A stretch of DNA of 56,634 nt, filler included, from Sluysia triapertura (Eukaryota): assembly GCA_046118255.1 (NCBI GenBank). It is 3 parts of 3 records of this genome, joined end to end, with 100 filler letters (N's around TTAATTAATTAA, not from the genome) between each part and the next. Parts side by side here need not be neighbours in the genome. Positions count along the whole stretch, not along the records: positions 37,412 to 56,634 come from JBJNIA010088686.1; 2 more parts are not named here. One strand, 5' to 3'. This document shows, one piece after another, positions 6,407-56,190 of this stretch. The position numbers and the translations under genes are program-made. The notes below the pieces were generated by a model. That model saw nothing but the letters and a program-made list of their open reading frames with translations, did no database searches and was not told where the DNA came from. How positions within the stretch are numbered: position 1 is the first letter of the stretch; each line of letters begins with the position of its first letter.

Positions 6407-6460
<54 letters not shown>

Positions 6461-7023
6461 TACTTCAATACGTATCTGCTTTAGAACTTAAATCCTTTTC
6501 GATCGTTCTAAATAAAATCCATTATTCAACAATTGATTTTTCAATAAAACATATCAAGTATTTTATTTTCACTAACTTGAGTCATTATTAAAACATTTTT
6601 CAAAAATTATAAATCCCAATTATGTCCAAAAAACTGTAATAGAACATTATCGTAAAACCTGACCATAAGGATATTTTTAATTCCATTTGTCGAAACTTTA
6701 CTTTGTAATTCCAATTTAGTTAAATATTATTATTAAATATTAATATTAATCTAGGAGTTTTTAATAAACGATTTAAACTTTAATATTTTATTGAATACAT
6801 GTAATATTTAATAGTGTTTTATTAAAAAAATATTAAATTAAAAATAAAACGCAGACCTTTAGACACAATATGAAATAACAATTATTAAAGTTAAATTTAC
6901 TGTCTTTTGTTCAAGGAAATAATATTCATTTTTCTTTAGATGATAAGTTAGAAGTTGTGTTACTTATTCTAAAACCAGATTTAGTGCAAGATAAAATGGT
7001 CGAAGAGGTAAAAGCAAAGGTAA

Positions 7024-7097
<74 letters not shown>

Positions 7098-10000
7098 CAG
7101 TGATACTAGTAGTTATAATAGTAGTAGTGGTGCTTTTATATACAAAATTATTTTTGCTTTTAAGTCATTTATTTGCTATACGTTAATTAAGCAAATAGTA
7201 TAAAAAGAGCAATATTTAGTTAAAAGATTGAGATTGCAAAAGACGCGAATACAATTTGATCTACATCAATTTCATGTTCGTTAAAACTTTTTTAATTTTA
7301 ATTCGTAAGTTTTATTCATGTAGGATTATTTCCTTACTTGATAGTAATATATAAAATACACGTTAAAATTTTATTTATTTTGACTAGCTTGAGACGCTAG
7401 TAATAGAATCAGATTAAACTCTTAATTTGATTTATTAGATTTAAGTCTCACAAAATAAAATTATATATATGTTTTAGTGTTGTTACTATTTGAGTTCGAC
7501 TAATCTCTTTGTAATTCGTAATTGTTTTATCATTTATTAATACACTTTTAAAAACGTTTAATATTGTCAATTAATGGTAGTATTAAAAAAAGTGCCAAAC
7601 ATTATTTAAAAGAATATTCTTGATAATAAATAATTGATAATAAAAGAAAATTAAAGATTTATTGTTATAAGGAACTAAGGAAGTTCGATATTAAATACAA
7701 CTGTTTAGATCCTCGAATTTATAGTTAAGTAAATCTTATAGGTACATCTTTCGCAAGGATGTAAATCGTATACTACAGGAAAACCCATATCATAACTAAT
7801 ATTTTGCAAAAATTAAGTTAATAATTGTAATAATCTTGCAAAACAAGAATTACCGAATTATTATTCTTATTAATAGAATTGTTGTAAAAGCACTTACTTA
7901 ACTATACACTATTCCGAAATAAAAGATAAAACGGCAAGATTCAAAAAACAGGATTTTTAAAATTAAAGTTTTTTCTAATTTTTATTTTTTTAAAAAATTT
8001 TTGGATATTTACTTATTAGGTATGGATAACTAAAATTAAGAATTCGAAAAAAATATTGTAAATAAATTACTAATAATGTTGGCAGAAGAATTATGGTTGA
8101 TGCTATTAAGATCAAATGTTTTTCTGGCTAATATCGAATCTTTATCTTAAAACTTCATCATTAATATTTTTGTTTTTCTTTAACTGATCTACTTTTCTCT
8201 TTTTTTTCCAACTAAAGTTAATGTTCTTTATCGTCTTTTTGATATGGTAGGTTTTATATTTTTGTTTATAATTTTATAAACTTATTTAAAGTGATTTAGC
8301 GTTATCTCAACGAATGATATTTGAGCAGGTTGTAAAGCCTTCATTTTAATTATTATTATCATTATTTTTACAATTATTACTTTCATTTAAATACGAATTA
8401 TTGTATAATCAACCAAAAATAATATTGATTTAAAGTGAAAATCAATTTGTCCATTTGGCATTTCAGTAAAATCATTAATTTTAGCATTCAATGTATTTAG
8501 GAATATACGATTATCATTAAAATAATTTAATATAAATAAGATAATTTATAATAGTGCTTGTATCATTTCCTCCTATTAGCTTGTTGAAAGAAATATAACA
8601 ATTTTAAAAGAAGAATTGCGTCAAATAACAAATGAAGAATTTCAAGCTTTATTTAAACATCTAGAAAACGCTGATTTTTATAAACAATTATCATACGGTT
8701 TTACCATAAATTCTGCTTTACTATTAATAATAAACAAAGAAATAAAAGAAAATCAATCCACAGAATCATCATCGGAAGAAAGTCAAACAGAAATTCAAAG
8801 AAAATTAAAAGAAGTTACAATATTTGATGACCTGATTGAAATTGTTGGACCGATTTGCACAGAACAGGCAAGGGATGAATATCCAGAAAGTTATCGAGCA
8901 ACGCTCAATAAAAAATTTGAAGATGATTATTTTTATTATAGTGAAGACAAAGAACAATGTGAAAATGATATAAATATATTCTTTCCTGATTTTGAAATTC
9001 CTCTTATAAAACGTCGCAAAACTGATAACCGATTCATTCAAAGAACTGTGGCTATCTTACGTCCATCAGCTCATCAAGATTACAACGACGAAATATTACA
9101 AGATATTGAAAACAATGGTTTTACAATAGTTTTTATGAAAGAGATAACATTTACCGAAGATTTGTGCAACAAATTGTACGATAATACAGTAACTGATTGT
9201 TATTTTGAAGATTTGAAATTGGAAATGACTGAAGGTGCATCATTAGTATTAGGACTAGAAAGAAAGGTTTTTCTTATTAAAATTTAATCTCCTGTTTTCA
9301 CATGTGTCTGATCGCCTAATACTAATATTAAAATAAAATTCAACTTATAAAATATATTTAATCTAATAAAATGTCTTAATTGTAACATCATGTTATTTTA
9401 TATCCATTCTATTATTTATAAATTTTCTATGAAAACACAAACATACATAATATAATAAATGTTTCAAATTTTTATTCGATGTGCAAATGTTTTGATTTTG
9501 CTGTGGGTTTCTTAACTTTTAACTTGCAGCAAAATAAATTTTGGCATGGTTCGGTTACAGTATACGAATTATGACGTGAAGTGGGCGTTAATTCGTAAAA
9601 TATAATCTCGAACATGTTTTAATTGCTAATCGACTATATGGTTTAATTCAGTAATAAATTACGCTTATCCTACAATGTATTTATTTTTAATTGCTAGAAA
9701 GTTAAAAGGTCTTAATAGATTTATCTTATTCCTCAGAAATTCAACTAGTAACGTTTTTTTAATACAAACTCTCTTCATTACAGCGCTTTAACACGTTACA
9801 GCTTCGATATTTGGAAAACTTGATTATAAATTCTACAAAAACCGAATAATAAATCACAAACGTTGATGTAATTTAAATTTTTATTAACAAATAATGATTA
9901 TTTAATTATTTACAAATTGTTAATGATAAAGCCACAAAGAGTGAAAGAGAAATAAAAATACAATAATGTAAAATTAAAACATTGTTGAGGTCTTGAATTT

Positions 10001-13000
10001 TTGTGAATTATTGATGTACATAATTTGTATGCTGGCCATACTCCTACAATTTTGTTTTTATCATTGACTTTATTTCGATTATTGTCATAAACTTTCAATA
10101 ATGTTATAATTTTGCTTAAAGAATTTTTAAATTTTAAATGTTAAATTTTAAAGTCGGTTTAAGGGCGTAAAAACTATTAATTAAACTTTTAACCAAAACC
10201 GATTCAAATAGAACCAAACAACAGAACGCTAATGTTACATTAATGATGAAAAATAAAACATAAAACGTAAAAGGTATAAAATGGTTAAAAATAATCACAC
10301 TTCAACATTAGATGAAAGAGTTCGTGTACACACTATATTCGCTTTTCGATTGACTTCTTCGCTACATGGACTACTTTGACAACATTTTTTGACCTCGATA
10401 AATAAAACTTTTGAATCACATTTACATATATCATTTTCACTAGTAAAGTGTCACTAGTTTAAAAGTGTCAACGATACATTTAGGACTACAAAATTTAATA
10501 GGTGTATCTGCATTATTTTGCATGCGTACAGTAGATGCACAAAATGTAAATATTTTAGTCAACTCAAATATTTTTGTTGATAAAGCATGATTAAACCACC
10601 TTTTGTGATTATTAAATATTTGACTATAAGGAAATATATAGTAAGTTAGTTTGAATTTTTAATTGATAATTGCATAATCGTGATTAACAGATACCTAATT
10701 TTTAAGTAGCTTTTTTTCTTGTTCTGATCATAAACATCTAAAATAACATGATTTGTCTCTATCTAATATCTGATTTTTTTTATTGAAACACATTCAGTCA
10801 GAACATGCTAAAGGATAGTACCTTTTGCTATTATTGAATAACATTTGATACACGATTGTCCGAACCAATTTTATTTGTAAAATAACGTGAATAACACCAA
10901 AATTTAGCAAATAAATCATCAATACAAAAATCAGTTCTGCAAAGAATATGATCTAAATAAAGTAAGTTAAACAAGGTTTTACAAATTGATGTACGTCTAA
11001 AAAATTAGGTATATCATTTGGTTATCATTAATACAGAAATTGCCTGGTGGTAAACTAAAAACTAAAAAATGCCATATCATTGAAACATTTGCAATGGATA
11101 GATCAATAATATTAAGTATAATCGACAAGAAGAAAAAGGAAAAGAATAATAATGGTAGTAGTAAAACAGTGATAAAGTAATAACAACTCGATAAATTTGA
11201 AATACACAAAAAACAGATACATGGTGATAAAAATACTTATACAACAACAGTGACATTAATGATAATAATAGAACTTTAATGCAACAATAATAGAATAATG
11301 ATAAAAATAATTATAAAAATACGATTACAACAAATCTTAACAACAGTAGCAGGTAAAAAAGAAAAAACCGTTATAAGATTTAACAATATATGATATTATA
11401 AAAATTGGGTTTGTATTTTACGTATACTCTTTGGTGATTTGATATGTCGGAGTTCGTTTAATAACTTGTTTATGTAAGATATGTTAATTTGTGTTTGCTT
11501 GTGATTATATCTGTAATTGTTGTATTTTAAATTTGAGTTCACTGCATTTATAAATACACAATATTTTAGAAATGATTTTGCACTTCATTAAATCGGGGCT
11601 CAAAAGATTTAAATAAAATTGATTTAAAACTATTTTAATAGAAATAATTCAAAAAATAAAGATTGTATGGATGCTGAACTGAATTATTGTTCTGTTACTG
11701 AATTGAATTAACATATAAATTTCCACAAAATTTTCAAAAATAGTTTATTCCAAGTATGGTTGCAAATCATTAACACAATTATTAAACTATTATTAAGTTG
11801 TGATTTAAACTAAGCTGATGCCAGTGTACATACTAGTCATCAGCTAATCAAAATCAATGAAATTTCTAGAATGCTCTAGAATTTTCGATTAATTTTTTTT
11901 AGTAAATGTTCTTTTCTTTTTTCGAAAGTTAACTCCTTTTTGTATTTTTTTAAAGGTTTTAAAGGGTTGTGATTACAACTTAATAATAATAAACTAGCAT
12001 ACAAAATTGAAGACAATTAGCGGTTTAAATCTTTATGAAGACGCGCTTATAAATAATTATAGTGAACAATAGTGCCTAATCTTTATTCAAGTAATACAGT
12101 TCCTTAATCTTTGTGGTGATCTCTTGATACCTGAAATTATAAAATAATAATAGTTTAATAATAATAAGAAAACGAAATAATTAAAAGTAAATAAACCTTA
12201 ATGGATCTTCTGAATTGAATAAATAAACCAAATGCGAAACAAATAAAAATCAATTACAACTTACCTTTTTCGAATAAAATAAATTCTAAATAAATAAAAT
12301 AATAATTGGCAATTAACTTATTTGATATATAAACGTAGATTCAAAGTAACAGAGGTTAGAAATAAAAATTGGGATAAAAATTTTGTGAAAGTTATACATT
12401 GAGATATTGGTAACAGTTGATTTTTACAAATTTGGGAAGGTTTCTACGAATTTGATTTTATATATATTCCTTATTGATATTTGAAATGATTTTTCGAACT
12501 TAATTATTATACTTATTGATTCATTGGTCGAAATATCCAAATTGGTTAGTAAACCATTTGTGGTTGCATTAAGAATTTACATTGATCAATTGGTCATGTG
12601 ACGAATCGCATAAATCAATTAATCATTTGGTCATACGTCGGCAAAAACAAATTGGTTCGATGAGTATTAATTACATTGGTTAACACAAACATCAAATTAA
12701 TTGTGGTGCTTGAAAAGAAGACCTGGATAATTATTATCAGATCAGCTTATTGCTAATAATTTTTGTAAGTTTATATTTTTAAGGAGATATAAAATACTAG
12801 AGACAGTTATTCATAAAATCAATTTTAATTTTAGAGTTACGAATTCTAATAATAAATTATTTCATACATTATTATTTAGTGACTACTTTTAGTAATTTTG
12901 GCTTTTATCATAGACTTTGTATAAACAATATTTAAGACTTTAATTTTTATCTCCTAGGCTATGAATATTTAATATTTTTGGTAATAAATTTTGGGACTTA

Positions 13001-16000
13001 TAGTTTTTATGTTGTTATTGCTAGGTTTTTCTCTTATTTTCCTAACAATTATGATTTTAAATACGGGTTCGTCTGCGGTATAAGATTTATTACGTGAAGT
13101 AGACGTATCCACAGAAAAGAATAACTACACAAGAATTTCTTTAACCTTGCTAATCAAAACTCTTGAATTATAAATTACAAAGGTCCTTAATATGTTAACA
13201 ATTAATGTGCCACAATCAGGTCGTAATCTAACAATTTAAATTTAACTTTTAATCAAATACGTTTATCACTATTTTCAAAATTACAAAATCTAATTGCTCT
13301 ATCAATTTTAATTCGTAAACTAATTCTATGTCTATAAACAATTTTTACAATTAACTTTCTTGAAAATTCCTTCTTAAAATTTACAAAAATTAAACATTAC
13401 CTCTTATTAAACAAAGGATTAAATAACAAACTACAATTTATTAATAAAGTAAAGGTACAAATTATAATGAATTACAATTTATTAATAAAGTCAAATTATA
13501 ATGATAATAATAATAAATTAAACCAAAAAAGAAAAATTACACTTTTTCTAATTGTAATAAAAGATTTTAGTTCAAATTTAACCCAGGTTTAATACTTGGG
13601 TGAAAAATTGAATGATTTTGAATAAGAATTTAAGGCTAAAAGTATTAAAGCCTAACTTAATAATAATTATCTTACTGAATTTTGGTACAATTAAATGTTG
13701 ATAATTTTGTCCAAATCTTCTTTTATGTTTCTCAAATAATAATTCGTCCAAGTTGATCAAATCAAATTAATTTCCAAAAGAATTAATCCCGAGCAAATCT
13801 ATGCGACAAATACAACCAGAAATATCGAATTAAATTTCCAAGTATCACGATACCTTTAAAAGAATTCTGACAACTTGTGTAATTCTATCCCTATGTTATG
13901 GTATTTATACTTCTTGATGATGCTGCTTGAGTACCGTTCTTTTATTTGAATTTAATGAATTATTTTTTACTTTTTTATGTTTACTTTATCAATAAAAATT
14001 GTTTTTTGAATACCAAAATCCAATAAAATAGTTATAAAATAATAATTTTATAGTTATTTAATGTTCACAATCGCAAAATAAAATAACTTTTCAAAATAAT
14101 AAAAATTTTTTAAGTTAGAGATTTTTATTATTTACAAATATTAAAAGACGTTTACTATTTACAAATATTTTTTATTATTTACAAATATTAAATGATTTTT
14201 ATTATTTACAAATATTTTGTTAATAACTCTTTACTGTATATTTGTGAATTATCAGCATTTATCTTCCCACGTGTTGTGACAAAATGAGCGTTACGCTCTA
14301 TAAATAAAAATTATCATAAAATATTATTTATCAAAAAACTGTTTTATCATCATTTTATTTCAATTTTCAAATTATTTCAAAATTTATTACTGAATTATTG
14401 TTTAAATATTATAATCTATTATTATTTTGTTAATAATTTGGAATTGGCTTGCCTTGACGAATGCTTTAATTGTTGATAAAACAAATATTGTATCATTCGT
14501 TAATTGGTTAATTTTAGTCATTTAAAAATAATGAACAATTAATAAGATATTTCGTCCTAAAATTTTCATTTTTCTATAAGTTAACTGCTAAATTTGGTAT
14601 ATCGTTTTAAATTAATTTTTTTAATTCTTATGTGAAATTTATTTTTCAGATATTAATTAATATTTAAACTACGATAATGTTATTTCTTTAATGTACCGAA
14701 ATATATTTATTGAAAAAATTAAATTAAAAAGATTTGTATAATTATTTTTCCGTTTATTTTAGAATGCTATCCGTAGATGGAAAACATTATTAGGTAACAA
14801 AAATTTAGCATTTGTTCAAACTTATCAACCGAATTGTCTACGTGCTAAATACACAAAAAGTGGCGTCTATGTGAATTTAATACATGGTTCCAGTAATTTT
14901 GAAAGATCTCATATTGAATTTAATCTTTTCTATCCGGTTCAACAAGCCGTGGTCGGTGTCAAGCCTGAAATATTTGAATCAAAGGTTGAAATTTTAGAAT
15001 TGATACAAGATTTTGGTTTTAAAATATCTACTTCCAAAGAAGTTACGTTAACTAAAGAAGATGTTAAAGTACTTTATGGAAAACATGAACGTAAACCATT
15101 TTATGAAAATTTGGTGAAATCAATGACAAAAGGTCCTTCTTTATTCATAATAATATCCAAGGAAAATGTAATAGAAGAAGTTCGTCAACTAATTGGAGAC
15201 AAAGATCCAGAAATTGCTGCAGAGCAAGATCCTGAAAGGTTTAATTAAATAAATTTTACATAATTTCTAGCTGCAAGGTAACGAATTTTATACAAAACTA
15301 CACAATAATATAAAAGCTATTTATTATTAGTTGTGTTTATTGTTGAAATTTAATTGCAAAACTTAGACAAATATTAATATTACTTAGAATATATTTAAAG
15401 CTTATTTAATGTATGTCTTTTCTAAATAATGCAGGAATAATTTGCTGAACGATTGCATTGATTCAAAGAATTACTGTTATACCTCTATAATTAATTATTT
15501 AGACAAAAAAATATATAAGCATTCTTTTTTCGATATTTGGTTTTTACAGCTCCATTATTGGGCCTCATTCATTTATTAAACTTGAGAATTCGTAGCTTTG
15601 CAATGATAAAAGAAAGTTATATCAAAGCGTGAATTGCATGAAACTGTGTCATGCCGGATATTTCCTTTATAAAAACAACTAAATGTGATTTTGATTTTTA
15701 TTCTATTCTTAAAATCCTTATAATTATATAGTTTGAGAAGCATGTACGGAACGAATTTATTAGAAAATGGCATTTATGGCAGTTCAAATATTGAAGAAGC
15801 TCGAGAAGTGATTAAATTATTATTTGGAAATATTGAGTTTGATGATACAGGATCCGTTAAAGGTTATTATGAATTAATTATTTTAAATTTGTTGTAACAA
15901 TGGAGGCATTTGTTTATTATGTACGATAATTTAATATTTGTTGAAAATTTCACAATTGAAGTTTACATATCTATGTCTTAAAAATGTTTCTAAACAGAAG

Positions 16001-23329: not shown

Positions 23330-24600
23330 ACCGGCCATCACATGTTGTGTCCCAGAAGTGTGATTCTAGTCTGAAAGAATTGACATTTCTTGGGTTTGAT
23401 TACCAAATTATTGTATACCAGTTTCTTTAGCATGGTATCCCGATGGATTTGGTGTTTATGGACATCCTTGTAAGATTTGATCGATATGCCGTTAAAAGTT
23501 TGAGGGAATTCCATAGACTGAACGACATTCGGATATACTCGATGAGACTGAAAGGGATAATCACGGCCGTCTTTGATATATCAGCGGTATGTATCAGTAT
23601 TTGATGATAGGCCTTTTCGAGATCTATTGAGGAAAAGACACTCCATCCAGTAAATCGGTGTAGAATGTCAGTTATAGGAGGCATCGGATATGCGTCGTGA
23701 ATAGTGACTTTGTTCAACATTCTGTAGTCATCGCATATGCGAATAGTGCTATCTTTTTTTGACGATTTGTAGAGGTGCGGCCTAGGGTGAGGAAGATCGC
23801 CGCACAATTCCTTGTTTTTTCATGTCAAGAAATTCGAGCTCTGCTTGGGAACGGACATTTTGCGCTAGTTCCCTTTGTCGCTGTCTACAAGGTGGAGTGG
23901 GCAATGTATTGATGAAAGGTGTAAAGTGTAATTGTTGCCGATATAAATCTGGGTAACACCTGCTCCACCTAAGAAAGGATATTTGTTTCATTAATTTGGT
24001 TTTGGTCTATTGTCCGGAGATTTTTTTGTAACGTCTTTGTGTGGCAGTCAACGGAGAACTTAAAATGATTGAGAAAGTCTGCTCCTAGTATTGATTGTTG
24101 GACTGCCGTTATTAGAAAAGTCCACTCGAGTATTTCTTTGAACGGATATATCTGAAAGTTGAGCTTCTGGGAACTGTAGCAAGCCATGCCGTTCCGTTGG
24201 CTGCTGTCAAATAAAAGCGTGTTTTGGTAGCATTATTTACTATTTTTTGGGGTATGACCGACACGGCGGATCCGGTGTCAACGAGAAACTCAAGGGAAGT
24301 ATGCTGGAAGTTGAGGAATCTGAGCGGTACCGAAAATATACTGTTGATCGCCATATTGTCCGGTCGGGTCGCTACGACTAGTGGCGAATTTAGTTTTTGT
24401 CGCTGCCTTAAAAGAATTAAATTGGTTGCAGCCATCCATACATCGTTTTGAGATGTGCGTGATACATGCACACATTTTTTATTCGCAGAGAATTCAACTT
24501 GTTAGGATATCTGCACCTTCTGTTGGTACTTGTTGTGGTAGTAGCAGATACCGTTAAATCTCCGGGAATTGCTAGTTGATTTCCTTGACAACGATGAGTT
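23330..24600 (-). mobile_element. Degenerate Ty3/Gypsy gag-pol fragment (Zn knuckle, protease, RT)
   Basis: GICYYHNKY gag knuckle (~24550); protease FLVDTGSAVSVIP, LTAANGT, ILGADFLNHF; RT GIVRRSSSP, IRICDDYRMLNKVTIHDAYPMP, FSSIDLEKAYHQI, KTAVIIPF; later LVIKPKKCQFFQTRITLLGH. Frameshifted, with the YxDD segment deleted. Confidence 0.9.
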
Positions 24601-37417: not shown

Positions 37418-37673
37418 AGGTTCTTTTTCTGAACCTTATTAAAATCTACATAAAAAAGGTTCGTTTCATCGAATCTGATTAAAATCTGTGAATTATTTTT
37501 ATTTTTAAACCACTTAAGTTCTTTAATTAAAGACCTCCTTATAAATTAATTAGAGTTTCTTAACCATTGAATATAAATCCAACGGTTGGCCATTAAGTTA
37601 GTAAGCCCAATACGTTGGTGGACTCACTTTTTACTTTCTAAGTTTTATTCAAAGCAAGCACATTTTTCTTGCA
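37418..37673 (-). repeat. LTR-like repeat family P, copy B
   Basis: Minus strand starts TGCAAGAAAAATGTG (37673); core 37579-37627; hairpins 37418-37436 and 37457-37476. Confidence 0.6.
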
Positions 37674-38061
37674 TACATCATTAACTGCATCGCAAAACAT
37701 TAAATTTACATTTTTAATTTACTTCAAAACATTAAATCAAATGGAATTTCTTTTAACATCTTTAACTATGTTATGTTGTTTAAAATTTTCTTTACATTTT
37801 TATGTTGACATTCATTCTTAATTCAACAACTATTTTCGTCAATTTCAACAACCTCAAGTTTAGTTACTGTAACATCGTACAATAGTCAAAAGATCTGTAA
37901 CGTATTTCAAACATTTACACAATTGCAAGGAAAAGAAATAATTTATAAATATTAATATTCTTATAAATATTATAATATTATATTATTATTATTTATAAAT
38001 ATTATTATTTATTATTAATAAATAATAATTTATAAATAAATATTATAATTTCTTATTTTAT

Positions 38062-39060
<999 letters not shown>

Positions 39061-40590
39061 GAAAGAGTCCCTACTATCTAATATGGAGGGTCTTTATATA
39101 TATGTCTTTAAATGTTATTTAATTGTACTTCTTACAGTCGATTCAACTTCTTTATACTTCTCTACTTAATTAAACTTTAACTAAAAATCAAAAACAAAAA
39201 TATTCAATACTTTACGTATTCTATGAAGTTTTTATTACTAAACTTTACAAGGGTAACAATAATAAATTTACAGAAGAAGATTTAATACAAACGCAAATAT
39301 TCAACAATATAATTATAAATAATAAAATTTAATTTATCAATTTTTAGGATTTCTCCTAAATAAATTATTCAATAGAAATTTAATATGATTTTAACCCAGG
39401 TGAACACTTGGGCGTGGAAAGATAATATGAATTTAAGTCTATTTTAATACAGTAAATTTCTGTACAAATCTTATCATAAATAGCTTACGGTTATTTTGTA
39501 ATTTAATATGCTGCTTCCAATTTTCCAACGACAATCCAATTTGCAGTTAACGAATTATTCGAGTAACGATTCCAAATAGTAAACGATGATGTCTTCGAAT
39601 ACCAATTCCAATTAACAAACAATTATCCTTCGAATAACAATTCCAATTCCAATTAGCAAACAATAACTTCTTTCTTCAATTAAATACCAATATCGAATAA
39701 TACGGCAAGTATTCCAAATGCGAAACTTCTTCAACAAAAGATTTTAAAATCTAATTCTAATTGTGTTATGAGATTTACTACAAAACCATAAGCTATTTAT
39801 ATGTGCTCTAATCTTTTTGCTACGTGTAAGTAAATGTAAGAATAATATGTTTTTTAATAATTAATTAAAAGATTAAAAGATAAAAATCGAATTAAAATGT
39901 AGATAATTATTATTTTAGACAGTAATAATCTAATTATTTCAATTATTCATTAAAAAATAATCTATTTTGTTTCGACTTTAAATTTACTGATAACGGTAAT
40001 TAAAAATAATCTAATTGTTTCAATTATTCTCGAATATTATGTTAAAAAGATAATTCAAATAATTATTTTCGACTTTGGATTTATTTTTGTGTACTTTTAT
40101 ACATTATATAATTAATTAAAAGGTTATTATTTATTATAAATTTTACTGCATAATATCTACAGTAAAAATTCGTTATTTTAATTAATTTTTATAATCTGAA
40201 GTTAAAGATACATATGTTCCGATGTATAAGTATTAATTGTCAGTACATAATTTGTGTTCAGTATGTCAGTGCATTAACAATCTGTATATAATATAATTTG
40301 TGTCTAAAAATAATTTGTAAAAATTAATAATCGATAATTTGTAACTAAAAATAAATTGTAAAAATTTTGAAAATAATAACGGTGTTATTATTGCTAATAT
40401 TATTTTTGTTATTTAGTATTATTTATCTTTTATTTAAAATCATTATTAATATTATATTTCTTTAAATTAAATAAAAATATTATTTCCTAAATGTAGGTCA
40501 AGGTGACCATTTTTCTATGATAAATACGCCTAAAAATTTTACAAGACACACAAAAATTTCTAAAAAACTTTTACAAAATTCTACTTTATA

Positions 40591-41950
40591 TTGGAGTTCT
40601 TTTTACGTGATGAGTATCCAAATCAATTTATTAAACAATATGGTCAAATTTATCATATCTATCAAGAGAGAAGATATATTTATACAAAAGCATATGAATG
40701 TGCAGTATCTAGGAAGAGATCTATTAGATGGTATGGACATAATATTCATACTTCACTAATTAAGCAACCAACAATAGAAGAGTATCTTGAAGTCACACCA
40801 AAAAATGCATGCCAAACTCGCGAAATACAAATTGATACAAGAATAAGGCTCAAAGCGAAACCAGGAGTTATTATACAAGAAGAAATATTCGTAGTAGGAA
40901 GTTTAGCTTGCGATGGTGCTTGAGAATATGGAGAACCTTGGCACAAAGGGAATAAGATTCAACAAGTATTAGTTATTGATACTTGTATTATTGAAATTAA
41001 AAACGCTGAAATAGCTGTTGATCCAGATACAAAGACAATGTTAGAAAAGACTTTTTTTAATTAGAATTAAAATCATGTTTTGATGAGAAATATACAATTG
41101 CTTATGATGTTGAAAATCGTGAATATAGCTTAGTATATTGAAAAACAGTTAATTTTGATACAATTAAACGTTAAATATTTTCATCTACTCATGAATAATG
41201 ATATTATCAATAATGTAAAAAATTTAAAATATAAGAAAGAAACCTTAGTAGAAACAACTACTCCCATTGTATTAATTGCTAATAGAACTGATGATGCATT
41301 TCGATTAATAAGAGTAAGTAAAATTCAAAAATGTGGTCAGTTAGCTTATAATACTAATTATAAAGTAAAACAATCTTATTTTAATCTATTAAATAAAGGT
41401 GTTAATTTTATAACTTACTTTAATAAATCAGACTTTCTTTATCATCATTAGTTAAGACAAGTAGAAGATCTTTAAAGAGAAATGATCATATATGACTGTA
41501 AATTAAATCGTGAAATATTGCGTACAAAAATGGCATTAATTGTTACTAATCCTAGCATGGCTACTCCAGTTATTCCGTTAGGAAAGGGAGTATTTAGTAG
41601 AATAATGTGACAGTTATTTATGTGGAACCTGTTACAAAGTTACTATTACCAGATATATTGAATGAATCAAAAATTAAATCCTCACCATTATTTTCTCCAA
41701 CATATAAATTGTTAGAAACAATGTCGCTTGTAGCTCCATCATTGACACAATACTACTATCAAGAAACCTAGAAATTACAACCTTATAAAATAATATACAT
41801 TTTGATCGAATTCAGGATTTAATGAAAAGTGGTCTATGTAATAAAAATCTATGGATGATTCTAAAAAACATTTATTATTCCCACAAACTCGTAATATATT
41901 TTTAACTGAAATAATAGAAACCTCTATAGGAGAAATTGGTGATGCTTCAT
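40591..41950 (+). pseudogene. Chuvirus-like (gB-related) envelope glycoprotein relic
   Basis: ECAVSRKRSIRWYGHNIHTSL..EEYLEVTPKNAC..VVGSLACDGA*; AFRLIRVSKIQKCGQLAYNTNY; YDCKLNREILRTKMALIVTNP..PLGKGVFSRI; EPVTKLL; MDDSKKHLLFPQTR. These blocks follow the order recalled for chuviral G proteins. Many stops and deletions. Confidence 0.7.
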
Positions 41951-42615
41951 CAAAGAGCATCAACAATAGCAAAAATTTTTATAGAAGAAATTATTTTCAG
42001 ATATGGGCCACCTAAAAATTAATTACTGATCAAGGTACTAATTTTACAAGTGAAATAATTAATAGGACAACAACATCTGTTTAGTTGAAAGATTTAATCG
42101 TACACTAATACAAATGCTATCTACATATAATGATGATCACCAAAACGATTGGGATGAATTTATTGCACCCTGTTTATTTGTATACCGTAACGTAGTACAT
42201 GAAGCTACTAAAGAATCACCATTTTATTTAATATATCTTCGAGAAATAGGATTATCGGTGGATTTATCCTTCATACCTGATTCATCAAAATATTTAGAAG
42301 ACAATTATTTACAGATAATGAAAGAAAGAATAAAAGAAGTATGGACAAGAGCTAAATTGAATGTAAAGTTTTACTAGGAATCTTATAAACAATATTACGA
42401 TAGTAAGATTAATCCAGCAAAATGTAAAAAGGGTGATTTATTATTATTCTATACCCTATTAAATAAAAAAGATTTTAGTAATAAATTCTGCAAACCTTAT
42501 GATGGTGCATATATTGTTGAAGATACCGCCGGACAGCATCTCAAAATAAAATTATATAAATAGAAAAAATTTGAATCTATAATAGCCCATAAAAATTGGT
42601 GTAAAACCTTTCAAA
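41951..42615 (+). mobile_element. Ty3/Gypsy integrase core and GPY/F region (degenerate)
   Basis: ASTIAKIFIEEIIFRYGPP..LITDQGTNFTSE..VERFNRTLIQML..NDWDEFI..YRNVVHEATKESPFYLIY..KQYYD..GDLLL..KFCKPYDGAYIV..IIAHKNWCKTF. Confidence 0.9.
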
Positions 42616-42699
42616 GAAATAATCCTCACTCTTTAAGAAATAATTCTACCAATAATTCTGAAGCAATACATCAAAATGAAGTAAGTAATAATACCTTAA

Positions 42700-43210
42700 A
42701 AGCACCTAATGTATCTAAATTAACGACACTCTTAATAATGTATATATGTATTATGATAACTTGGGCAAGAGATGGCACTGACATTGAAGATTGGATGTTT
42801 CATTCTAAAATATTTTACATAAAAATTAAATCTAAATTTGTTATTAATAATAGTTATCCTTATAAAGTAATATGCCACAATGAATATGAAATGCATAATG
42901 CAACATATAATGAAGATGAAAACTTATTTTCATGCATAAATTTAAATCCCGACACCAATTATATAGTCTATAAAGGTAGGAGATAAAATTTAAAAACTAA
43001 CCAACAAATGTATCCTGTTTTGCAAGTGCCTACAAGCATGATTTTACAACTGAAGTTATAGAATTAAACATAATGATGTTAATTATAGCAATAGGGGTGT
43101 TGATAATGTTAGAGTTTATTTTGTTTTATAAGTATAGTTATAAAAAGAGATTCGAAAGAGATATTAAGGGTATACGTTTAATAGCATCAATCAGGAGTTA
43201 CTGTGGTTAG
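42700..43210 (+). pseudogene. Type I membrane protein relic with an FN3-like motif, in frame with the integrase
   Basis: Hydrophobic LTTLLIMYICIMITWA (signal-like); ectodomain with INLNPDTNYIV (FN3 LxPxTxYxV motif); after a stop and frameshift a TM helix IMMLIIAIGVLIMLEFILFY followed by KYSYKKR. 42738 is in the same frame as 42114. Confidence 0.5.
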
Positions 43211-44126
43211 ATGAGTTTGTAAAGTCTGTTGAGTATCATGATAATAATTATGTAAATTATGATATATATGTAAACAATAACTCTAATTATGTAATAAAGT
43301 CTTATGTTTAAATTTGCATTATTGACATTTTTAATATTTTTTTCTTTACATTTTTTTGGTTTACAGCATAATGAACTATAAAAGAATTACCATACGACTT
43401 GTAATCTATAACTTAAGATTTATAATTTATAGTTCATTATTATGATATTCTGCTCTTGATTTACGCTTTAATACGATTTGTTATTTGTAATTTACAGATT
43501 TCTAGTTTTAATTTATGGTTCGTATTTTATAATTTATAGTTTATAATTTATAGTCTATGATTTATTATTTATAAGTTACGACTTCCGATTTATAATTCAT
43601 TAACCGTAAATTGTATATCACTTTGACAATTATTTTAAATATTGGTTGAGATTTGTTATTTAAAATAATTTCAAAGAGTTTTATGACTAGTTTGTGTTCG
43701 AGGTAAACCTCATTTTTGGTTGTATTTTAAAATATTTTATTTTATTATTTACGTGAGGTAGTCTTCTACTTATGATTGGACAAACACTAGCATGTCCGTT
43801 TTCTTTCCTAGTACTACCGATGAATGTTAAAAATCAGTTGGCATATTTACCTCGATGAACGAAGATAGTACATAGAGTTGGGCAATACATATTGATAGTG
43901 GAACGGAAGATAACAGTATGAGGAGTAGTGAATAGAATGGAGAGGGAGAAATGAGTGGTACTATGACAACTAATGGTAACTATATCCCACATGCGTTACG
44001 TTCAGTAAAAACTATGGAGTACTGTGAGCCATTATCTAATATACTACAAGAACCTGATAACTTTATTGAACTGGAGCATATTATATCTGAAGATGAAGAT
44101 CATAATGAAGTATAGTCAGTTTGACT

Positions 44127-44145
44127 AGAGAGGGCAATGTAATCG
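44127..44145 (+). other. Possible polypurine tract and 3' LTR start
   Basis: AGAGAGGGCAA directly followed by TGTAATC (44138), downstream of pol. Confidence 0.3.
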
Positions 44146-45255
44146 TTTTTAGAATTGATGAAAAGCGTCCAAAAAGCAAGTAAAATGTACATTGCACCTT
44201 GAATAGCTACAATTCAAACTGTTCAAAATATAGTTCTATGGGCAATGGCAATAGAAACTTGCTGTAGTATTGTTTTAAAGAAAGAATTTCAAAAGTATGA
44301 AACATTACTAGAAAATGTGCCATTTTTATAGTGGATGCCTAGATTACAATACTTAACGATCTGAATGGAGCAATAATTACTCTGTATAATAACCGGGTTT
44401 GGGAATTAAAATTACTTAATTTATTAAATGTGTGAAATTGAATACTTTATAAATCAACTGCTGAAGGTAGCATTTTTGTATAATTTATAAGAAATTTATA
44501 AGAAATTTAGAAAATTGTGATTTATTAGCTATTATGTTATTATGTTATTAGCTATTATAACATTGAGTTTTTGCTACTAATTTGAATTAAAGAATACAAC
44601 TTCTGTTGGGATTGAATAGATATCATTACTAAACTAATAGAATTTGAGATAATTTATATTTAATTTAGTGTGTATTGAAAATATTAAGATTTCGTTTAAG
44701 TAGATTAAAATGACACGCAACATTTAATGGATTTTCTCTCAGTTACTATATTTTCATTATGCCGATTTTCTTTGTTATTCTTTTTATTTACAGATTATAT
44801 TATTAATTATGATTATGATTATGATTATTTGATTATTAATTTTATTATTTACAGATTAATTATTTTATTCACACAAAAGTAAAGTTTAAAAGTATAAAAT
44901 AAACAAAAGTAAATCTACCTGTGGTGGCCCAGCCCACACCTACCTACATATCACATAAACCTCAACACAAAAATAACACCATAACAAATTTTACACATAT
45001 CATTTACAACATTGCACTACTTATCATTATAAAATCACAAATGCCTAGTAAAATTTCTTTTATTAACATTTTTATCAAAATATTAAACTCAATGTTCATT
45101 GTCATTTTTATTATCATTATGACGCACTATCATTTTTCTAGTATCTCCCGATTTTTCATTTTTTTTCTTTTTTGCGATTTAGCGTTGTTAGGTTCTTTTA
45201 CCCTAAATATTGAATCCGTCCGTAATGATGTATCGTTATACTTAAATTAGAAATC

Positions 45256-46050
45256 ATGGTTTTCATGCATATTTCTATTTCTGAAGAAAACCCATCGATT
45301 TCTGCTTTGGACCATTTATTAATTAGAAATGAAAAAGTATTATTGAAAGGCATTGAAATTTCTTTTAATCGGTCATGTTTAGTTCAATGTTCAAATCATG
45401 GAATTATATTTAGACAGACTTTCGAAATTGTAGGTTCAAATTTTTCGTATTTTAATAAACTACATCAGACATTGTCGGTGGCTTATGATAATGGTTCTTA
45501 TATTATATATGTTGCTGACGTTGAAAATATAATTAGAATTATTCAAGTTAATCTTACGTCAGGTATTTTTACAAACAGTTGTTTTCAAAAATCTTTTGTT
45601 AACATTACCGAACTTTTTGCTGAAATAAAGTCTTCCGTTTATGAAGAACATGTTAAAAATATAGAAGGTACCTATGAAATGAAATTATTTTCATATTATA
45701 ATACCAAAAGAAATGTATCATTTCAAATCGAAGAAGAATGAAGAATGGATCAGATAATTACTCATGAATATATTGCCAGTATTTCATATTCATCTAATAT
45801 TTTAGATTTTTTTGCGTTTTCAAATTGTTACTTACATTTTTTAACAACCCCAATTCTTGGAAAAGTGAAATCATATGGTAAATTAGAAATAGGTACACTC
45901 AGTGATAGTTTAGAACATGTACACTTTTATCAAAATCATTTAAAATCTAATGAATATGTATTTATTTTATCCCAAATTGATTCAGAAATTGTTACAATGA
46001 TTGATGGTAGTCTGCCTAGTTTGGATTGCTTTGATTATATACTCGTTTGA
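45256..46050 (+). pseudogene. Orphan intronless ORF split by one in-frame stop
   Basis: ORFs 45256-45741 and 45745-46050 share a frame; ~260 codons in very AT-rich DNA; no family recognised. Confidence 0.4.
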
Positions 46051-46520
46051 AACAAATGTTTATATCATTTACAAAATTAGAAATTTGGGTGAAAATGAAT
46101 TTTTTGATATTGTTAAACACTGATTCCATTTGACTATAAGAGATATTAATTAATTTGATGATAATAATAATTACAATGAGGATGACACTATATGTAGTGA
46201 TGATGATGATAATGATGACGATTAAGTATGTAGCGATGATGATGATGACCAAGATGACGTCAATAGATATGAGATATTTGTATGTAGTATAAATACTCAC
46301 ACATTAATAAAAATAATCATAATAACAAATTTTAAAAAATTTTGAAATTACTTCAAGTAGACTCAAACCAGAAAATTTGAAATAATTTGAAATAATAGAA
46401 TATAATTCTAATGAAAATATGTCTCTTATTGCAAAGACTGCATCATTTCCAGTCCACGACATGAACTAACTAGTTAATTATAAGGGACATTTAAATGAAG
46501 TTGCATTAAGTTGTTTTAAA

Positions 46521-47306
46521 ATGATAGTGAAAAATAAAAAGCGTTGCATCACGCATTCGGAGTTTAATCAGTACCAACATTCTGCAAAATTGATGAAATC
46601 AAATTCTAAAGATGGAGATTTATGTAAACGATCAGAATATTTAGTGATGAAATTCCGAAATGTATTAAATAAACATGTTTATGACGTGCGATATACTCTG
46701 TTTATTGCTAATCCAATATATTCAGTTTATCCTTCACCACCTAATGAAACTGATATGCATATATTCGATGTAAATGTTAGACTTCCACACGTTGTTCGGT
46801 ATTACCAAACTTGGACTGAATTTCAAACACTTCTCGAGCAATTAGAATATCATATTGGGTATTCTATTTATGATTATATTGTAAACTATTTGAAACAAAA
46901 TAATACTTATGAAATTAAAGAGGTGTTTGTAATAGAAATGATTTTTAGCATTCTATCAACTGTATCTTATTTACTCAATAATGATATACGTACTCATAAT
47001 GATGTTCATGAGTACGATTATATTGTAAACTATTTGAAACAAAATAGTACTTATGAAATTAAAGAAGTGTTTGTAATAGAAATAACTTTTAGCATTTTAT
47101 CAGCTATACATTATTTATTCAATAATGATATGAATGCTCATAATGACGTTAAGGTTAAAAAAAATTTATGTTTAAATAACAATAATTCATTAATAATTAA
47201 ATCCAAACATTATACATTTTACGTTAATAAAAACACATCCACAATACGTTGTTTGATCTGCAATTTCGGGTTTACTGCTCCACTTCGACTAAAGTTTAAA
47301 TGTTAG
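46521..47306 (+). CDS. Orphan 261-aa ORF with a 48-aa internal tandem duplication
   Basis: Longest open ORF in the window; repeats 46869-47012 and 47013-47150 (YDYIVNYLKQN..HNDV); C-terminal CLIC. Confidence 0.4.
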   Translation: MIVKNKKRCITHSEFNQYQHSAKLMKSNSKDGDLCKRSEYLVMKFRNVLNKHVYDVRYTLFIANPIYSVYPSPPNETDMHIFDVNVRLPHVVRYYQTWTEFQTLLEQLEYHIGYSIYDYIVNYLKQNNTYEIKEVFVIEMIFSILSTVSYLLNNDIRTHNDVHEYDYIVNYLKQNSTYEIKEVFVIEITFSILSAIHYLFNNDMNAHNDVKVKKNLCLNNNNSLIIKSKHYTFYVNKNTSTIRCLICNFGFTAPLRLKFKC

Positions 47307-50300
47307 GTTTTCAGAAGGCATTAAGCTAATGTTTTATTTTTGAAAGGCAATAATAAATTTTCTTAATAAAATGAAAAGCAAAATTAAAAGAAAAATAATA
47401 ATGACGTATTATAACGATATAAATTTATGGCTTTTAATAATATAAAATTAAAAATTTATTAAAAGATTTAAAATAATATCAGTGAATGAATAAAATTGCT
47501 ATATCTTAAGGATATCTGAATACTCGATCGAAATTTCAACTTTATTATTAATTAATATATTTATTTGGCTTGATTTAAACCCAAAAAAATACATAATATA
47601 CTAAAATTTATTAACAAAAAATTTTATTTAAAAATATTAAAATCGCATAGAAAGTACATATTTTATCAGTACAATTACACATATTACAAAGTATAAAAGT
47701 CTGGTGAATTCGTTTATCATTAATTCGACAAAATTTACATTTAAATCAAAATGTAGGTTACACATACTACTAATTTAATTTATTTCTACTACTAACATAA
47801 ATATAAACAACGTTTTTGTTAAGGTAGCGGCTTCGATAAGCATCGGTTTGAACAAGAACTTCTATAGCGTAAGTTTTAGAATAAAATGTTTCAAGAGAAA
47901 ATACTGATTTTGGAAAATTAATTCCAGTACATTTTAAAGATGAATATATCATTTAAGTTGCAATGTAATACATTTATTATGAAATGAAAATACTTCACTA
48001 ATTTCTAATGAAATCATTTGATAACGTGCATCATGCTCTAATTTGTTATGAATACGATTTTTTTTCTGTATCTGAAGTTTATGTTTTTCAATCAGTTCAT
48101 ATACATATTCCAGATAATTACTAGTTGGGTATATTATAAAGTATAAGTCTGAATTTACAACTGTAACAATATAATCTAAATTTATTCGATTTTTTGATTC
48201 AAAATCTTCATTTGTGGATTACTTACGAGGTAAATGGTAATAACACAATCAACTGTTGAATATTTTTCTTTTGAAACATGCATTCAAAATATCTAATTAT
48301 GTTTGGCAACCAAATAATGTAGTATAAAGGAGTTTATAACACTTTTACAAAATGACATAAGCAATGATATTTTTATGTTAATAAATATTTTATTAAATTA
48401 TTATTATTACTATTAATATTATTATTATCGCAATTACATATTTCGTCATCACAGATGTTAAAGATTTATAAGAAGCCTTAAACACATAATTAAGTAACTG
48501 TTGGATTATAAACAAAATTTTATAATTTTAAGAACATTTTTAAGTGATAGATCACATATTATGACCGATTAATGCATACTCCTAGTGTTATTAATGTACA
48601 AAATAATGATTATATTCAGTATTATCAATATAATTTTGTAGATAAAAACCATAAATGCCTCAGTAATTACACAATATATTTGGATAAATTTAATTAAAAA
48701 GATTTGGAATTTCCCATGATTATTATTAACACATCTAAATAAATAATTTACGCTAAATGTTGCTAATTTTAATAGTATTGATGAATGCGATATTCATGAC
48801 AAGGATGTGAAGGTGTAAAAATTTTATTTTTATTTTTATGTTTTATATTTTATATTTTAGAAATTTTAAAAAAATTGTAAAATATTGTAAAAATTATTAA
48901 AATTACCATTATTTAAAAAATCCTAATAATAATTAAATTAAATTTAAAATTAATAATTAATTATGTTAAAAGTAACCTAACAAGAATTAAAAAGAAGGTT
49001 CGAGAGTAGAAAGTTGTTTTATTAAAGTAATTTTTTAATATGGCTTTATGCATATATAACGAAGCAGAGATAAAGAAAGACGCCATCGTGTATTGTCATT
49101 AGAATTTATTACGTCTTTGTTAAAGATTCACCATTGCTTATTCGTCATTTATTGGTAATTCATTCATCATCAATACATCAGTTCTCGGTCAATTTTGATA
49201 CTCCAGCAATTCAATTCATTCGTCAAATATCCAATGGTATTTTTTTATCTCGCGTCTACAATTGGAGGGATACAGTTTTCAATTCTCAATCAATCAAATG
49301 ATCAAGTTATTTGGAGAAAAAGAACAATCCTGTATTTAGAGCACTCTTTTGATTAATTGAATTGTAAATTTGTTGTGTATAGCTTGAATACTCAATTTGA
49401 GTCAAAATATATACTTAAAATACCAAAATTTCGGTTGGTAATTAAGGCCAATCATAAAATCAATCTAGACTCTAAATTCATCGCTTTTTAGTTGGCCCTT
49501 AAGGTCAATTACAAAATCTATATCGATAAGTAGAGTCCACGGGCTAGATCTTTATTATAATTGAATTTATATTATTATTATATTTTTATTATTTACAAAG
49601 TTTTTTGAACTTTATAAATTCATCATTGTATTATTTTAAATTTTTATTTTATTTAACTTGTCGTATAATAAAACTTGAATAGTTTAAAGTTTTTTATTTA
49701 TAAGAATTTTGTGTTGAATCCTGTGAATATAAGTTGAATTTACAATTTATATATTATAGGAAATTTAAAGAATTAAATAGGTTGTTACTAGTGGAAATAA
49801 GTGAATTACGGCATAAACTTTCTAATATATTAAATAATTGAGGTTAAGCTTAAGAACTAAAAGAGTAATACGTTTCTATACGAATATTGTTAACTTTATT
49901 TTCACAAAAACTTAAATATTACATATGCCAGCGTTGGTAGTGATTATTTTTTCAAGTGTCAGTTGACATAAACGACGATTTGACCACTATTGTTAAGTTA
50001 AGGCAAAGAGTATCTTTTATACGATTAATTTTAATAATTGTTTTCACGTGATTTTTTACAGGTACACCATTAGTAAGTCGAATACTGTATACGGACTCAG
50101 AATAATAATTTATTTTGCTGTAAGTTAGTTTTTTATATTAAGAAAAAACACTATCCAGAAGAATATTTTTAAAAATCCATTTATTGATATAATATATATA
50201 AATAAGTGTATCAGTGAAACAATTATTAATCTACTATTATTTGAAGACAAAAATACTATTCATTATGTAGTAATTGTCAGAATCATATTTCGTCAGAATC

Positions 50301-53155: not shown

Positions 53156-54476
53156 ACATCAATTAAAAATAGTACAACTATATAAAATGAAATTATAGTA
53201 TATGTAGTACATAACACAATTGTTATATATTGGTCTGATTTGTTCCATATGGATCTGAAAATATAATAATTAATAGTAATATTTTAATAAAAAATTAATA
53301 ATAATAATAATGCATGCACTTTGTATAATTTTCTGCATTCTAAAACAAATAAAGATCAATTACTCAAATAAATAAAAGAATACAAATGAAAAAATAATAT
53401 TTTAATTATTAAATAAATAAATAAGAAAATCGCATAAAATTTATTTTACCTTTGTAAACATTGAATTGGTATATAAAGATCAGCTAAAAAACTTTACACC
53501 TCCAAGTTGGGATCTATTACTCGTGTTGAGAATTTTACAAATTCAGCAAAAAAAATTTGGTTGCGACTTGGAACCGTACGTTATAATAATTTGGTAAATA
53601 AATATTCAACGAATATTTGGTTACAGTAATTTTACGATTTGGAACGGTTCATTTTCAATATCATCTTGGCCAATTATTTCAGAGTAATACACCAAGTTCA
53701 AACTAAAATAAGTTTTGCGACAGAATATTCACCAATTTAGCTCAATTCGTTAACTATATAGGGAACTTGATAATATATTGTCAATTCGATTTTACCTAAA
53801 ATTTCGTAAGTTATTAATATTAAGTTTTTTCTTATTTTTCTTATATTTTTTCTTATAATTTGTTCCTTAATTTATTCGTTGATTAGTACATCTCTAATTT
53901 TCAGTCAGAGACAATTTTGTAAATTAAAATTGTATTAAGGATTAGAACGTAACTGATTAATCATAACATTATATATAATTATAATTTGTTTTTCAGCTAT
54001 TCTATACTTTTGTCATATAATATTATTCAACAATTACATCAATATATGCATCTGTATTATTTTGTAGCTAATCCATTTATGTTATTATTTGGTGATAAAG
54101 GTATCATTTGGCATACGTGAACGGCATTATTAGGTTTCATCTGGTACATGATAAGCAATAATATCTTGTTATACAAATCATAAAGTTACAAGGAGAAGTT
54201 ATAATATTTAGGAAGATCTTCAAGGTATAATTTGGCATTTGTAATATTATTTATTTATTATTTACGTTTATATTATCATATTTCAGCTATTTTATATCAT
54301 TTTTTCTTATATATATTTTAAATTCTATACACTACTGTACAATCCTAACAATATGATATTATTATTGAGTTTTATTAGGATTTTTAATGATGAACTATTG
54401 CAAAGCACGTTAACATAGATAACGTAACAATTAGTTATTTTTATTAATTTTTATAATTTAAAATTAAATTTAAATA

Positions 54477-54860
54477 TGTTCCGATGTTTAAATATTAATA
54501 AAGTATTGTGGAATTTTATTTAAAGTAGAATAATAAAATAAAGAGAAAGTTTTAACGTGAGTCCACCAACGTATTGGGCTTACCAGTTAGGGCCAGACGT
54601 TGGATTTGTGAATAAAAGGATTCTTAAGTAAGGTTAAAAGAAATGCTTAAAAGGTTTTGTTAATGATGCTAGTTTATATCTTGACAGTGAAATATTAAAA
54701 ATTTTCTGGAGGTAAATTTTAATACTAATGAATTTTATGAAATTTTATTTAAATAATCAAAATTAATAATAATAATGTTCTTAGGATTATTTTACGTAGA
54801 TTCTTTGAAATGGAATCTCAAAAAAGATTTTAAGAAATTGGATTTAAATTCCAATTGTTG
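54477..54860 (+). repeat. LTR-like repeat family P, copy C
   Basis: Possible start TGTTCCGATG (54477); core 54552-54607; TGGAGGTAA near 54707; hairpins 54798-54818 and 54836-54856. Confidence 0.55.
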
Positions 54861-56092
54861 AAAACGTGTTTTTTTATGGATTTTATATTTGCAATTATGT
54901 AAATTGAATAAAGAGACTCGATTTTAATAATTTATTATAAAACAATAATAAAATGCACATAATAGTAATATTAATAACAATTAATTTGCGTATTTTAACT
55001 CAACAGAAGTTAAAATAAAAATCAAATGAATTTACAAATGAATTTATCGTTAGATCTATTATAAGATCCAAAAAATTAATTCACAAAGAGAGTTTAAGTA
55101 TGAATTTACGCTGAAATTGTTAATATCTTGACTTATCACAATTAAACTAACGTAACGTTAAATAAAATTTATTTTGAAGCGTGATAGCAAACTGATTTCG
55201 ATTCGTAAACCACGAATTCCAATATTAAAAGAAGACTTATAATAACTAGTTGTATTGAAGACCTTTAAAAGTTGACATTGTGTCAACAAAAACTGTGTAT
55301 CAAAATTGAATTATCAATTTGTGTAATAAAAATTGTGGCTATTTATAATTGTTTTAGTCTGACCTTGGCCAGATTAAAACAAATTATTTTAATTATTAAA
55401 TTAAAACAATTTTCATTAATTTTAAAATTTGAAAAACAATAATTTCATCAAAAACAACAATTTCATTAAAATTAATTTTAGAATTTAAAAATCGCTTACA
55501 TTTTTTCCAATTCAAAATTTGAAAAATCCGAAATTAAAAAATCATTATTAAAGTAATCTAAGATTAATAATCTATAATTAAAAAATCCATAATTAACAAT
55601 ATTAATATATCAATTGTTCATTACATTACAACAATCAATGTATAAATCAAAGTGTCAAAGTATAGACCAAATCGCAAATCATTTGCATAATCACAAATCA
55701 GTTACAATCACAAATCATTACTTAACTTGACTTGCAACGTATGGTTGGTGCACAACGTATTATTATTTATTGTCAATATGTAAATTCTGAAATTCTAAAA
55801 ATAAACCTTAACACGCACAAGAATTATATTTTTATCGATTATGTCAATATGTAATTCTACATACATAAATATGTCATTTCTAAAAATAAATATTGATTAT
55901 TGTGTGTAATAATAATATTTTGTAATTCTAATATGTAATTCTAAAAATAATTTATTTCGACGATATTATTATTATTTATTTACTATTATTATTTAGCATT
56001 TATTTATTATTTGAAATCATTATTAATATTATTTTCAATTCTTTAAAACTTGCATTTCTTTAAATTAAACAAAAAATATTTCTAAAAATATC

Positions 56093-56190
56093 GGTCAAGG
56101 TGACCAATTTTTACTATAAATGCATATACAAAATTCACAACTCACACACAAAATTTTTTTACAAATCTCCTGCAAAACTTCTCCTAGTTG
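56093..56190 (+). repeat. Dispersed repeat beginning GGTCAAGGTGACC (other copy 40496-40590)
   Basis: About 95 bp of similarity between the two loci. Confidence 0.6.

Follow-up and report, generated by a model that had tools for sequence, protein, structure and literature searches.

A predicted type I glycoprotein fused to the integrase of a decayed env-before-pol Ty3/gypsy element in Sluysia triapertura

The DNA analysed here, referred to as the window, is a stretch of 56,634 nucleotides from Sluysia triapertura. Its positions 40494-43210 were best explained as the 3' end of a repeated retroelement, in a copy that has decayed and lost internal sequence and in which a predicted type I glycoprotein fused to the integrase was likely the accessory surface partner of the fusogen; the probability of this reading was put at about 55%. 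As judged from its sequence, the element is of the Ty3/gypsy type and carries a gB/chuvirus-like env 5' of pol, which is the known GAG-ENV-POL layout. That it encodes a membrane protein in frame after the integrase was considered highly probable. The layout leading from the integrase to the membrane protein was also found intact in a distant element (L001); therefore, such elements likely make two surface proteins, not one. The features of the window copy are given in Table 1. The GC content of the window (~25%) was that of AT-rich animal DNA.

Table 1. Features of the decayed element copy at 40494-43210 of the window.
Feature	Position	Strand	Basis
Decayed gB/chuvirus-type envelope (Monjiviricetes fusion) remnant, C-terminal anchor absent	40564-41925	+	PF24664; L001 env alignment; 5' of pol
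Internal deletion junction, approximate	41926-41942	+	Start of pol homology; loose copy ends; no RT/RH homology
End of the Ty3/gypsy integrase core plus the C-terminal domain, with frameshifts and stops	41942-42614	+	Gypsy pol homologues; L001 IN aa 2122-2360
Asn-rich linker, 32 codons, integrase frame, without ATG	42615-42710	+	Sequence
Predicted internal signal peptide	42711-42767	+	Hydropathy, flanking charge
First 72 aa of the ectodomain, predicted to be beta-rich, with 2 N-glycosylation sequons	42768-42983	+	Sequence, single-sequence model
Tenascin-like E-F strand motif within the ectodomain	42912-42968	+	Match to tenascin
Break: stop codon (42984-86) and frameshift before 43001	42984-43000	+	Sequence; X1 contig
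Stalk of 23 aa followed by a predicted TM helix at 43070-43126, then a basic cytoplasmic tail of 27 aa and a stop	43001-43210	+	Hydropathy, charge; end of repeated unit

The env remnant matched PF24664 with an E value of 2.3e-8 and 32.9 bits, against a curated cut-off of 27, over model positions 59-113 and 244-371. Residues 636-961 of the L001 env aligned with window positions 40651-41601, and the part at 41602-41925 was assigned to env by eye only. A chuvirus-like fusogen had been placed in the same element by the initial annotation, and the gB/chuvirus-type env found 5' of pol on the same strand bore this out. The integrase had 19 gypsy pol homologues (best E value 8.8e-22) with rve and H2C2 domains, mostly with RT/RH before IN. 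PDB sequence searches with the window integrase and env returned nothing significant. An origin from a Maverick/Polinton or Ginger element was considered and rejected, because all 19 integrase relatives were gypsy pol and no such core genes lay in 37420-47400. The pol homology began at 41930-41942, the loose ends of other copies fell at 41942, and no RT/RH homology was found between the env remnant and the integrase of the window copy. Hence, the env anchor and the greater part of pol are gone from this copy. Gag, PR, RT and RH are missing from it and are all present in L001, and the window covers 2.7 kb of the element. A pair of LTRs was searched for in the window, and none was found.

The summed contig depth was 21,700-84,100 in each of the 11 bins that make up 40494-43210, beyond which it fell to 1597, 163, 77, 50 and 33, where depth is the sum across the contigs of one run and not a copy number. 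The env remnant, the integrase and the membrane ORF clearly form one highly repeated unit, which ends at the ORF stop near 43210. In the initial annotation, an acidic ORF and a possible PPT were said to follow. This ORF and the purine tract at 43939-43951 lay outside the repeated unit and, with summed depths of 77 and 50, were rejected as parts of the element. The acidic ORF belongs to a decayed, GC-richer (34%) frame at 43760-44360 (+; depth 33-77; no Pfam match), which is probably an unrelated low-copy relic. Another decayed ORF, at 38236-39200 (+), lies 5' of the env remnant, is open for 144 aa and has no match in Pfam or in L001. An interspersed repeat (40162-40237, 40456-40559, 54424-54499 and 56054-56156; 79-86% identity) abuts the start of the env remnant and may mark the point at which the element lost its 5' portion.

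Several features were observed elsewhere in the window. Two long, near-intact ORFs at 45229-46050 and 46326-47306 (+; 170 + 102 aa, and 278 aa including a tandem duplication of 144 nt) had no significant Pfam match, and their summed depth of ~90-1,400 points to a lower-copy repeat or to accessory genes of another element. A separate, second decayed gypsy element with protease and RT remnants occupies 23347-24501 (-). Pieces of host genes, comprising thioredoxin/NDK-type exons (PF00334), a UFL1-like gene (PF09743) and putative apextrin-like exons, were located within 1521-15248 (+), 26750-27193 (+) and 32477-36301 (-). By eye, tRNA-like SINE ends followed by AAT repeats were seen at 170-232 and 33634-33696.

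The open frame at 42564-42983 has 140 codons and is in register with the integrase. The motif IIAHKNWCKTF closes the C-terminal domain of the gypsy integrase, the last residues of which make up the first 17 of this frame, and the homology to the L001 integrase stops at 42614. From 42615 on, 123 codons stay open, a length that was reached in none of 20,000 base shuffles (maximum 93); open runs of at least 123 codons were present at 0.55% of the window codon positions. An open linker of 32 codons arose in 4-10% of trials. On the strength of the 123 open codons, the earlier placing of the Asn-rich linker, the signal-like stretch and the ectodomain in the integrase frame was upheld. The integrase of the window copy is interrupted by stops at 42375-77 and 42561-63, and the fusion with the membrane ORF is therefore unbroken only from 42564. 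The frame had been described as running without a break from the integrase tail, which is correct from 42564 on but not for the integrase itself.

The signal-like stretch had a KD19 value of 1.72 and a KD11 value of 2.72, with basic residues before it and acidic residues after it. The KD19 value of the predicted TM helix was 2.93, and 6 K/R occurred in the next 15 aa, which agreed with the TM helix and basic stretch that had been noted beyond the stop and frameshift. Both hydrophobic segments had the positive-inside charge, and the first ATG of the membrane ORF sits within the hydrophobic core. The hydropathy and charge were compatible with a type I protein composed of a signal, an ectodomain, one TM helix and a basic tail, the parts of which are split by the frameshift. 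Hydrophobic stretches were frequent in the window, with a KD19 of at least 1.6 in 35 of the 103 open frames of 60+ codons and of at least 2.5 in 15 of them, and hydrophobicity by itself is weak evidence. Contigs of depth 31 from run X1, which is possibly the same sample as the source of the window, were identical to the window over 42344-42715 and matched 42807-43131 ungapped, with 3 differences. Moreover, the stop and frameshift were crossed by a depth-31 X1 contig with 0 gaps. The X1 contigs agree with the window; therefore, the breaks are present in the DNA itself.

No usable homologue of the window ectodomain or the membrane ORF was obtained from a search of 5.8 billion proteins, which covered near as well as longer lengths, a protein atlas, and metagenome and viral contigs. 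A HMMER scan of 1.84 billion proteins with the membrane ORF gave 3 matches, all of them tandem-repeat proteins with summed scores: two unrelated repeats and one engineered 8x tenascin FN3, which was matched over 21 residues. The module had earlier been proposed to be a captured cell-surface protein. The small type I membrane module after the integrase was retained from this proposal, and capture from the host was not, since the protein searches found no source gene.

An FN3 fold was considered possible for the window ectodomain, with the odds somewhat against it. The LxPxTxY motif, the sole occurrence in 113,264 window codons, lies ~60 residues into the ectodomain, and the likeness to the tenascin FN3 domain (1TEN) consists of a 19-residue E-F strand match with this motif at the right spacing. 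In the PDB, tenascin was matched with E values of 1.1-1.3 over 19-21 residues. The 19-residue match to the tenascin unit had an SW score of 58, reached in 0 of 5,000 shuffles, with tenascin chosen afterwards as the best of 177,635 sequences. FN3 domains are expected to carry a Trp on the B strand. In contrast to 1TEN, the first half of the window ectodomain was unaligned and had no Trp at the expected place, and no Pfam fn3 or clan profile matched the membrane ORF at E values up to 10. A model of the 73 aa before the break, built from the single sequence, was mostly beta with six strands (pLDDT 53; last part missing). The fold search with this low-confidence model gave a best Z of 3.9, with mostly beta-propeller fragments among the matches listed, and FN3 titles were found for 0 of the 50 matches listed, an outcome that speaks neither for nor against FN3. 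The FN3-like character assigned to the ectodomain by the initial annotation was not established and is kept as a lead.

An integrase alignment search of metagenome contigs yielded 302 confirmed relatives among 485 matches, and the best 80 were kept. L001 was the best integrase relative among them (E value 1e-28). It is a single ORF of 2,693 codons, in which zf-CCHC, a PF24664 env (E value 1.3e-88), PR, RT, RH and IN follow one another. After IN come a 60-residue linker, a hydrophobic segment at aa 2421-2439 (KD19 2.35), an ectodomain of 234 aa that contains 9 Cys and 6 sequons, and, at 2673-2691, a C-terminal helix of only moderate hydrophobicity (KD19 1.75), behind which 2 residues form the tail. 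The L001 protein was present in a second record as well, which differed at 2 of 2,663 residues. Two hydrophobic segments ahead of env were noted at L001 2072-2230, and the polyprotein therefore has at least five predicted membrane segments. Among the best 80 of the 302 relatives, a hydrophobic in-frame IN tail was found only in L001 (2.35; next 1.25), many tails being shorter than 19 aa or cut; an env similar to that of the window was likewise found in one, again L001 (E value 7e-5), many loci being short. The env or tail of L001 was matched at no other locus among these 80, and none of 19 other gypsy pol homologues had a hydrophobic IN tail. Five gypsy relatives (L003, L013, L014, L063 and L067) carry a TM-anchored ORF of ~700 aa 3' of pol, which is the conventional env position.

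In a quick tree built from 84 distinct sequences out of 93 rows, with loci of less than 140 aa left out, the branches of the window and L001 integrases were long and joined at an SH-aLRT of only 73. Homology between the two ectodomains was undetectable (SW 25; shuffle mean 27.6); therefore, the parallel is one of position and topology and is drawn from two elements only. The L001 ectodomain gave nothing significant against PDB sequences, and its model had a pLDDT of 34. From the sequences, the post-integrase slot is shared by the window element and L001, and common descent of the cargo does not follow.

The proposed mechanism was inferred from the topology and from general knowledge of viral polyproteins. 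In active copies, a single polyprotein with the order gag-env-PR-RT-RH-IN-X would be made. The env part would be translocated and anchored, and the enzymes beyond the env anchor would remain cytosolic. The internal signal past the integrase would restart translocation into the ER, signal peptidase would cut and free the N-terminus of the ectodomain, and the TM helix and basic tail would stop the transfer and anchor the type I glycoprotein. The element protease would separate the integrase from the membrane-bound linker. By this polyprotein route, each env would come with one copy of the membrane protein. Given an element-encoded, in-frame protein, its most likely role, with about an even chance, would be to dock particles or producing cells onto target cells. 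In herpes- and paramyxoviruses, the attachment and fusion proteins are separate. A lineage of env-before-pol gypsy elements with a two-component envelope was viewed as a rather doubtful extension; it would combine a gB-type fusogen in the polyprotein with an exchangeable attachment glycoprotein (FN3-like in the window, Cys-rich in L001), which is cut from the integrase end and sets the cell tropism. Against the preferred reading of an accessory partner of the fusogen, no intact copy of the window element family was seen in the data examined.

The window element and L001 carry different cargo, as expected of exchangeable host-interaction modules, and the same protein could act on the host cell as a surface decoy, an immune modulator or a superinfection-exclusion factor, comparable with the anti-apoptotic cargo of Burro1. 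According to the available text of the sources, the extras of Burro elements include BIR, BCL2-like and MATH domains (PMC6431247), and stem cells are protected by the IAP region of Burro1 (work cited in PMC13465017). However, both known cases of the module occur together with a gB-type env, with which they share their translation, and no immune-receptor similarity was found in Pfam and PDB sequence searches, so that a role on the host cell was judged unlikely. A separate ORF3 expressed from spliced or subgenomic RNA, with the pol frame being incidental, was quite unlikely. No stop occurs from IN to the signal stretch in the window element or in L001, and the position of the first ATG and the single ORF of L001 also speak against such a unit. 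ORF3s are typically separate spliced units, and that of the rotifer Vesta4 has 220-230 aa and two hydrophobic regions with cysteines between them (available text of PMC5408684); furthermore, the chance frequency of an open 32-codon linker given above and the possible loss of a start codon in a decayed copy would fit this origin.

The membrane ORF may also be a functionless passenger, that is, host or random sequence caught at the end of pol and amplified with the element. The commonness of hydrophobic stretches in the AT-rich window, the broken state of the window copy and the lack of homologues in the searches agree with this. It was held to be very unlikely in view of the 123-codon open frame, the ordered signal-ectodomain-TM-basic anatomy, the end of the copies' similarity at the ORF stop codon and the intact parallel in L001. 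A small cell-cell fusogen of the FAST/sORF2 kind, which would move capsids between cells, shares the single TM helix followed by a basic patch. FAST proteins have ~100-200 aa and sORF2 has ~70 aa in the available text of PMC11952523, and the remark in the initial annotation that the protein is too small for a fusogen is thus no strict argument. The window module, however, has a predicted cleaved signal and a predicted glycosylated ectodomain of ~100 aa behind this internal stretch, whereas in FAST/sORF2 fusogens the ectodomain is N-terminal, short and often myristoylated and a cleaved signal is lacking. The window module also lacks an N-terminal MG motif and follows pol instead of preceding gag; moreover, a full fusogen is already part of the element. 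Such a function was regarded as extremely unlikely.

The reading of an accessory surface partner bears on target-cell finding by gB-type retroelement envelopes, for which a second surface protein, swapped between lineages, would be a candidate for tropism or immune evasion. If it is true, a retroelement polyprotein would enter the ER twice, and the integrase would be tied to a signal sequence until cleavage.

The element was compared with known systems on the basis of the available text of the cited papers. GAG-ENV-POL Ty3/gypsy errantiviruses with an HSV/gB-type ENV occur in Nematoda, Bryozoa and Platyhelminthes (Chary and Hayashi, eLife 2026, PMC13524379), and the window element likewise has a gB/chuvirus-type env before a gypsy pol. 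By eye, its env resembles the Platyhelminthes_C1a rows of that paper. In the main text available, the post-IN domain discussed is the chromodomain, the 'transmembrane' passages concern ENV, and the words 'fibronectin' and 'fused' do not occur. The planarian Burro elements are similar in having env in frame between gag and pol; they combine a single polyprotein, a mononegavirus-like env, thousands of copies and extra domains (PMC6431247). The Burro extras, however, are of cytosolic type (AIR1, Smc, MATH, BIR, ankyrin, BCL2, SUMO-like and dUTPase), with no post-IN membrane protein in section 7 of that paper. Burro is giant, with an ORF1 of ~5,000 aa, whereas L001 has 2,693 codons and no MATH, BIR, BCL2 or dUTPase Pfam domains; therefore, L001 is not a Burro in that sense.

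The ORF3s of the rotifer elements Vesta4 and Vesta6c are small (210-230 aa) and located after pol, and Vesta4 shows two hydrophobic regions with cysteines between them (PMC5408684). They are separate ORFs taken as stand-ins for env, whereas the window module lies in the IN frame and is accompanied by a full fusogen. The MDG1-group sORF2/FAST proteins resemble the window module as small accessory TM proteins with a basic patch in a gypsy element (PMC11952523). In contrast, sORF2 is located 5' of gag, is often myristoylated and belongs to env-less elements, whereas the window module comes after IN in an element with an env. No description of a post-integrase membrane or FN3 module in such elements was found in the text searched, and figures or supplements may show the post-integrase region of Burro or nematode elements. 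A second membrane protein read from the integrase end is thus, apparently, an undescribed feature in an element of a known kind.
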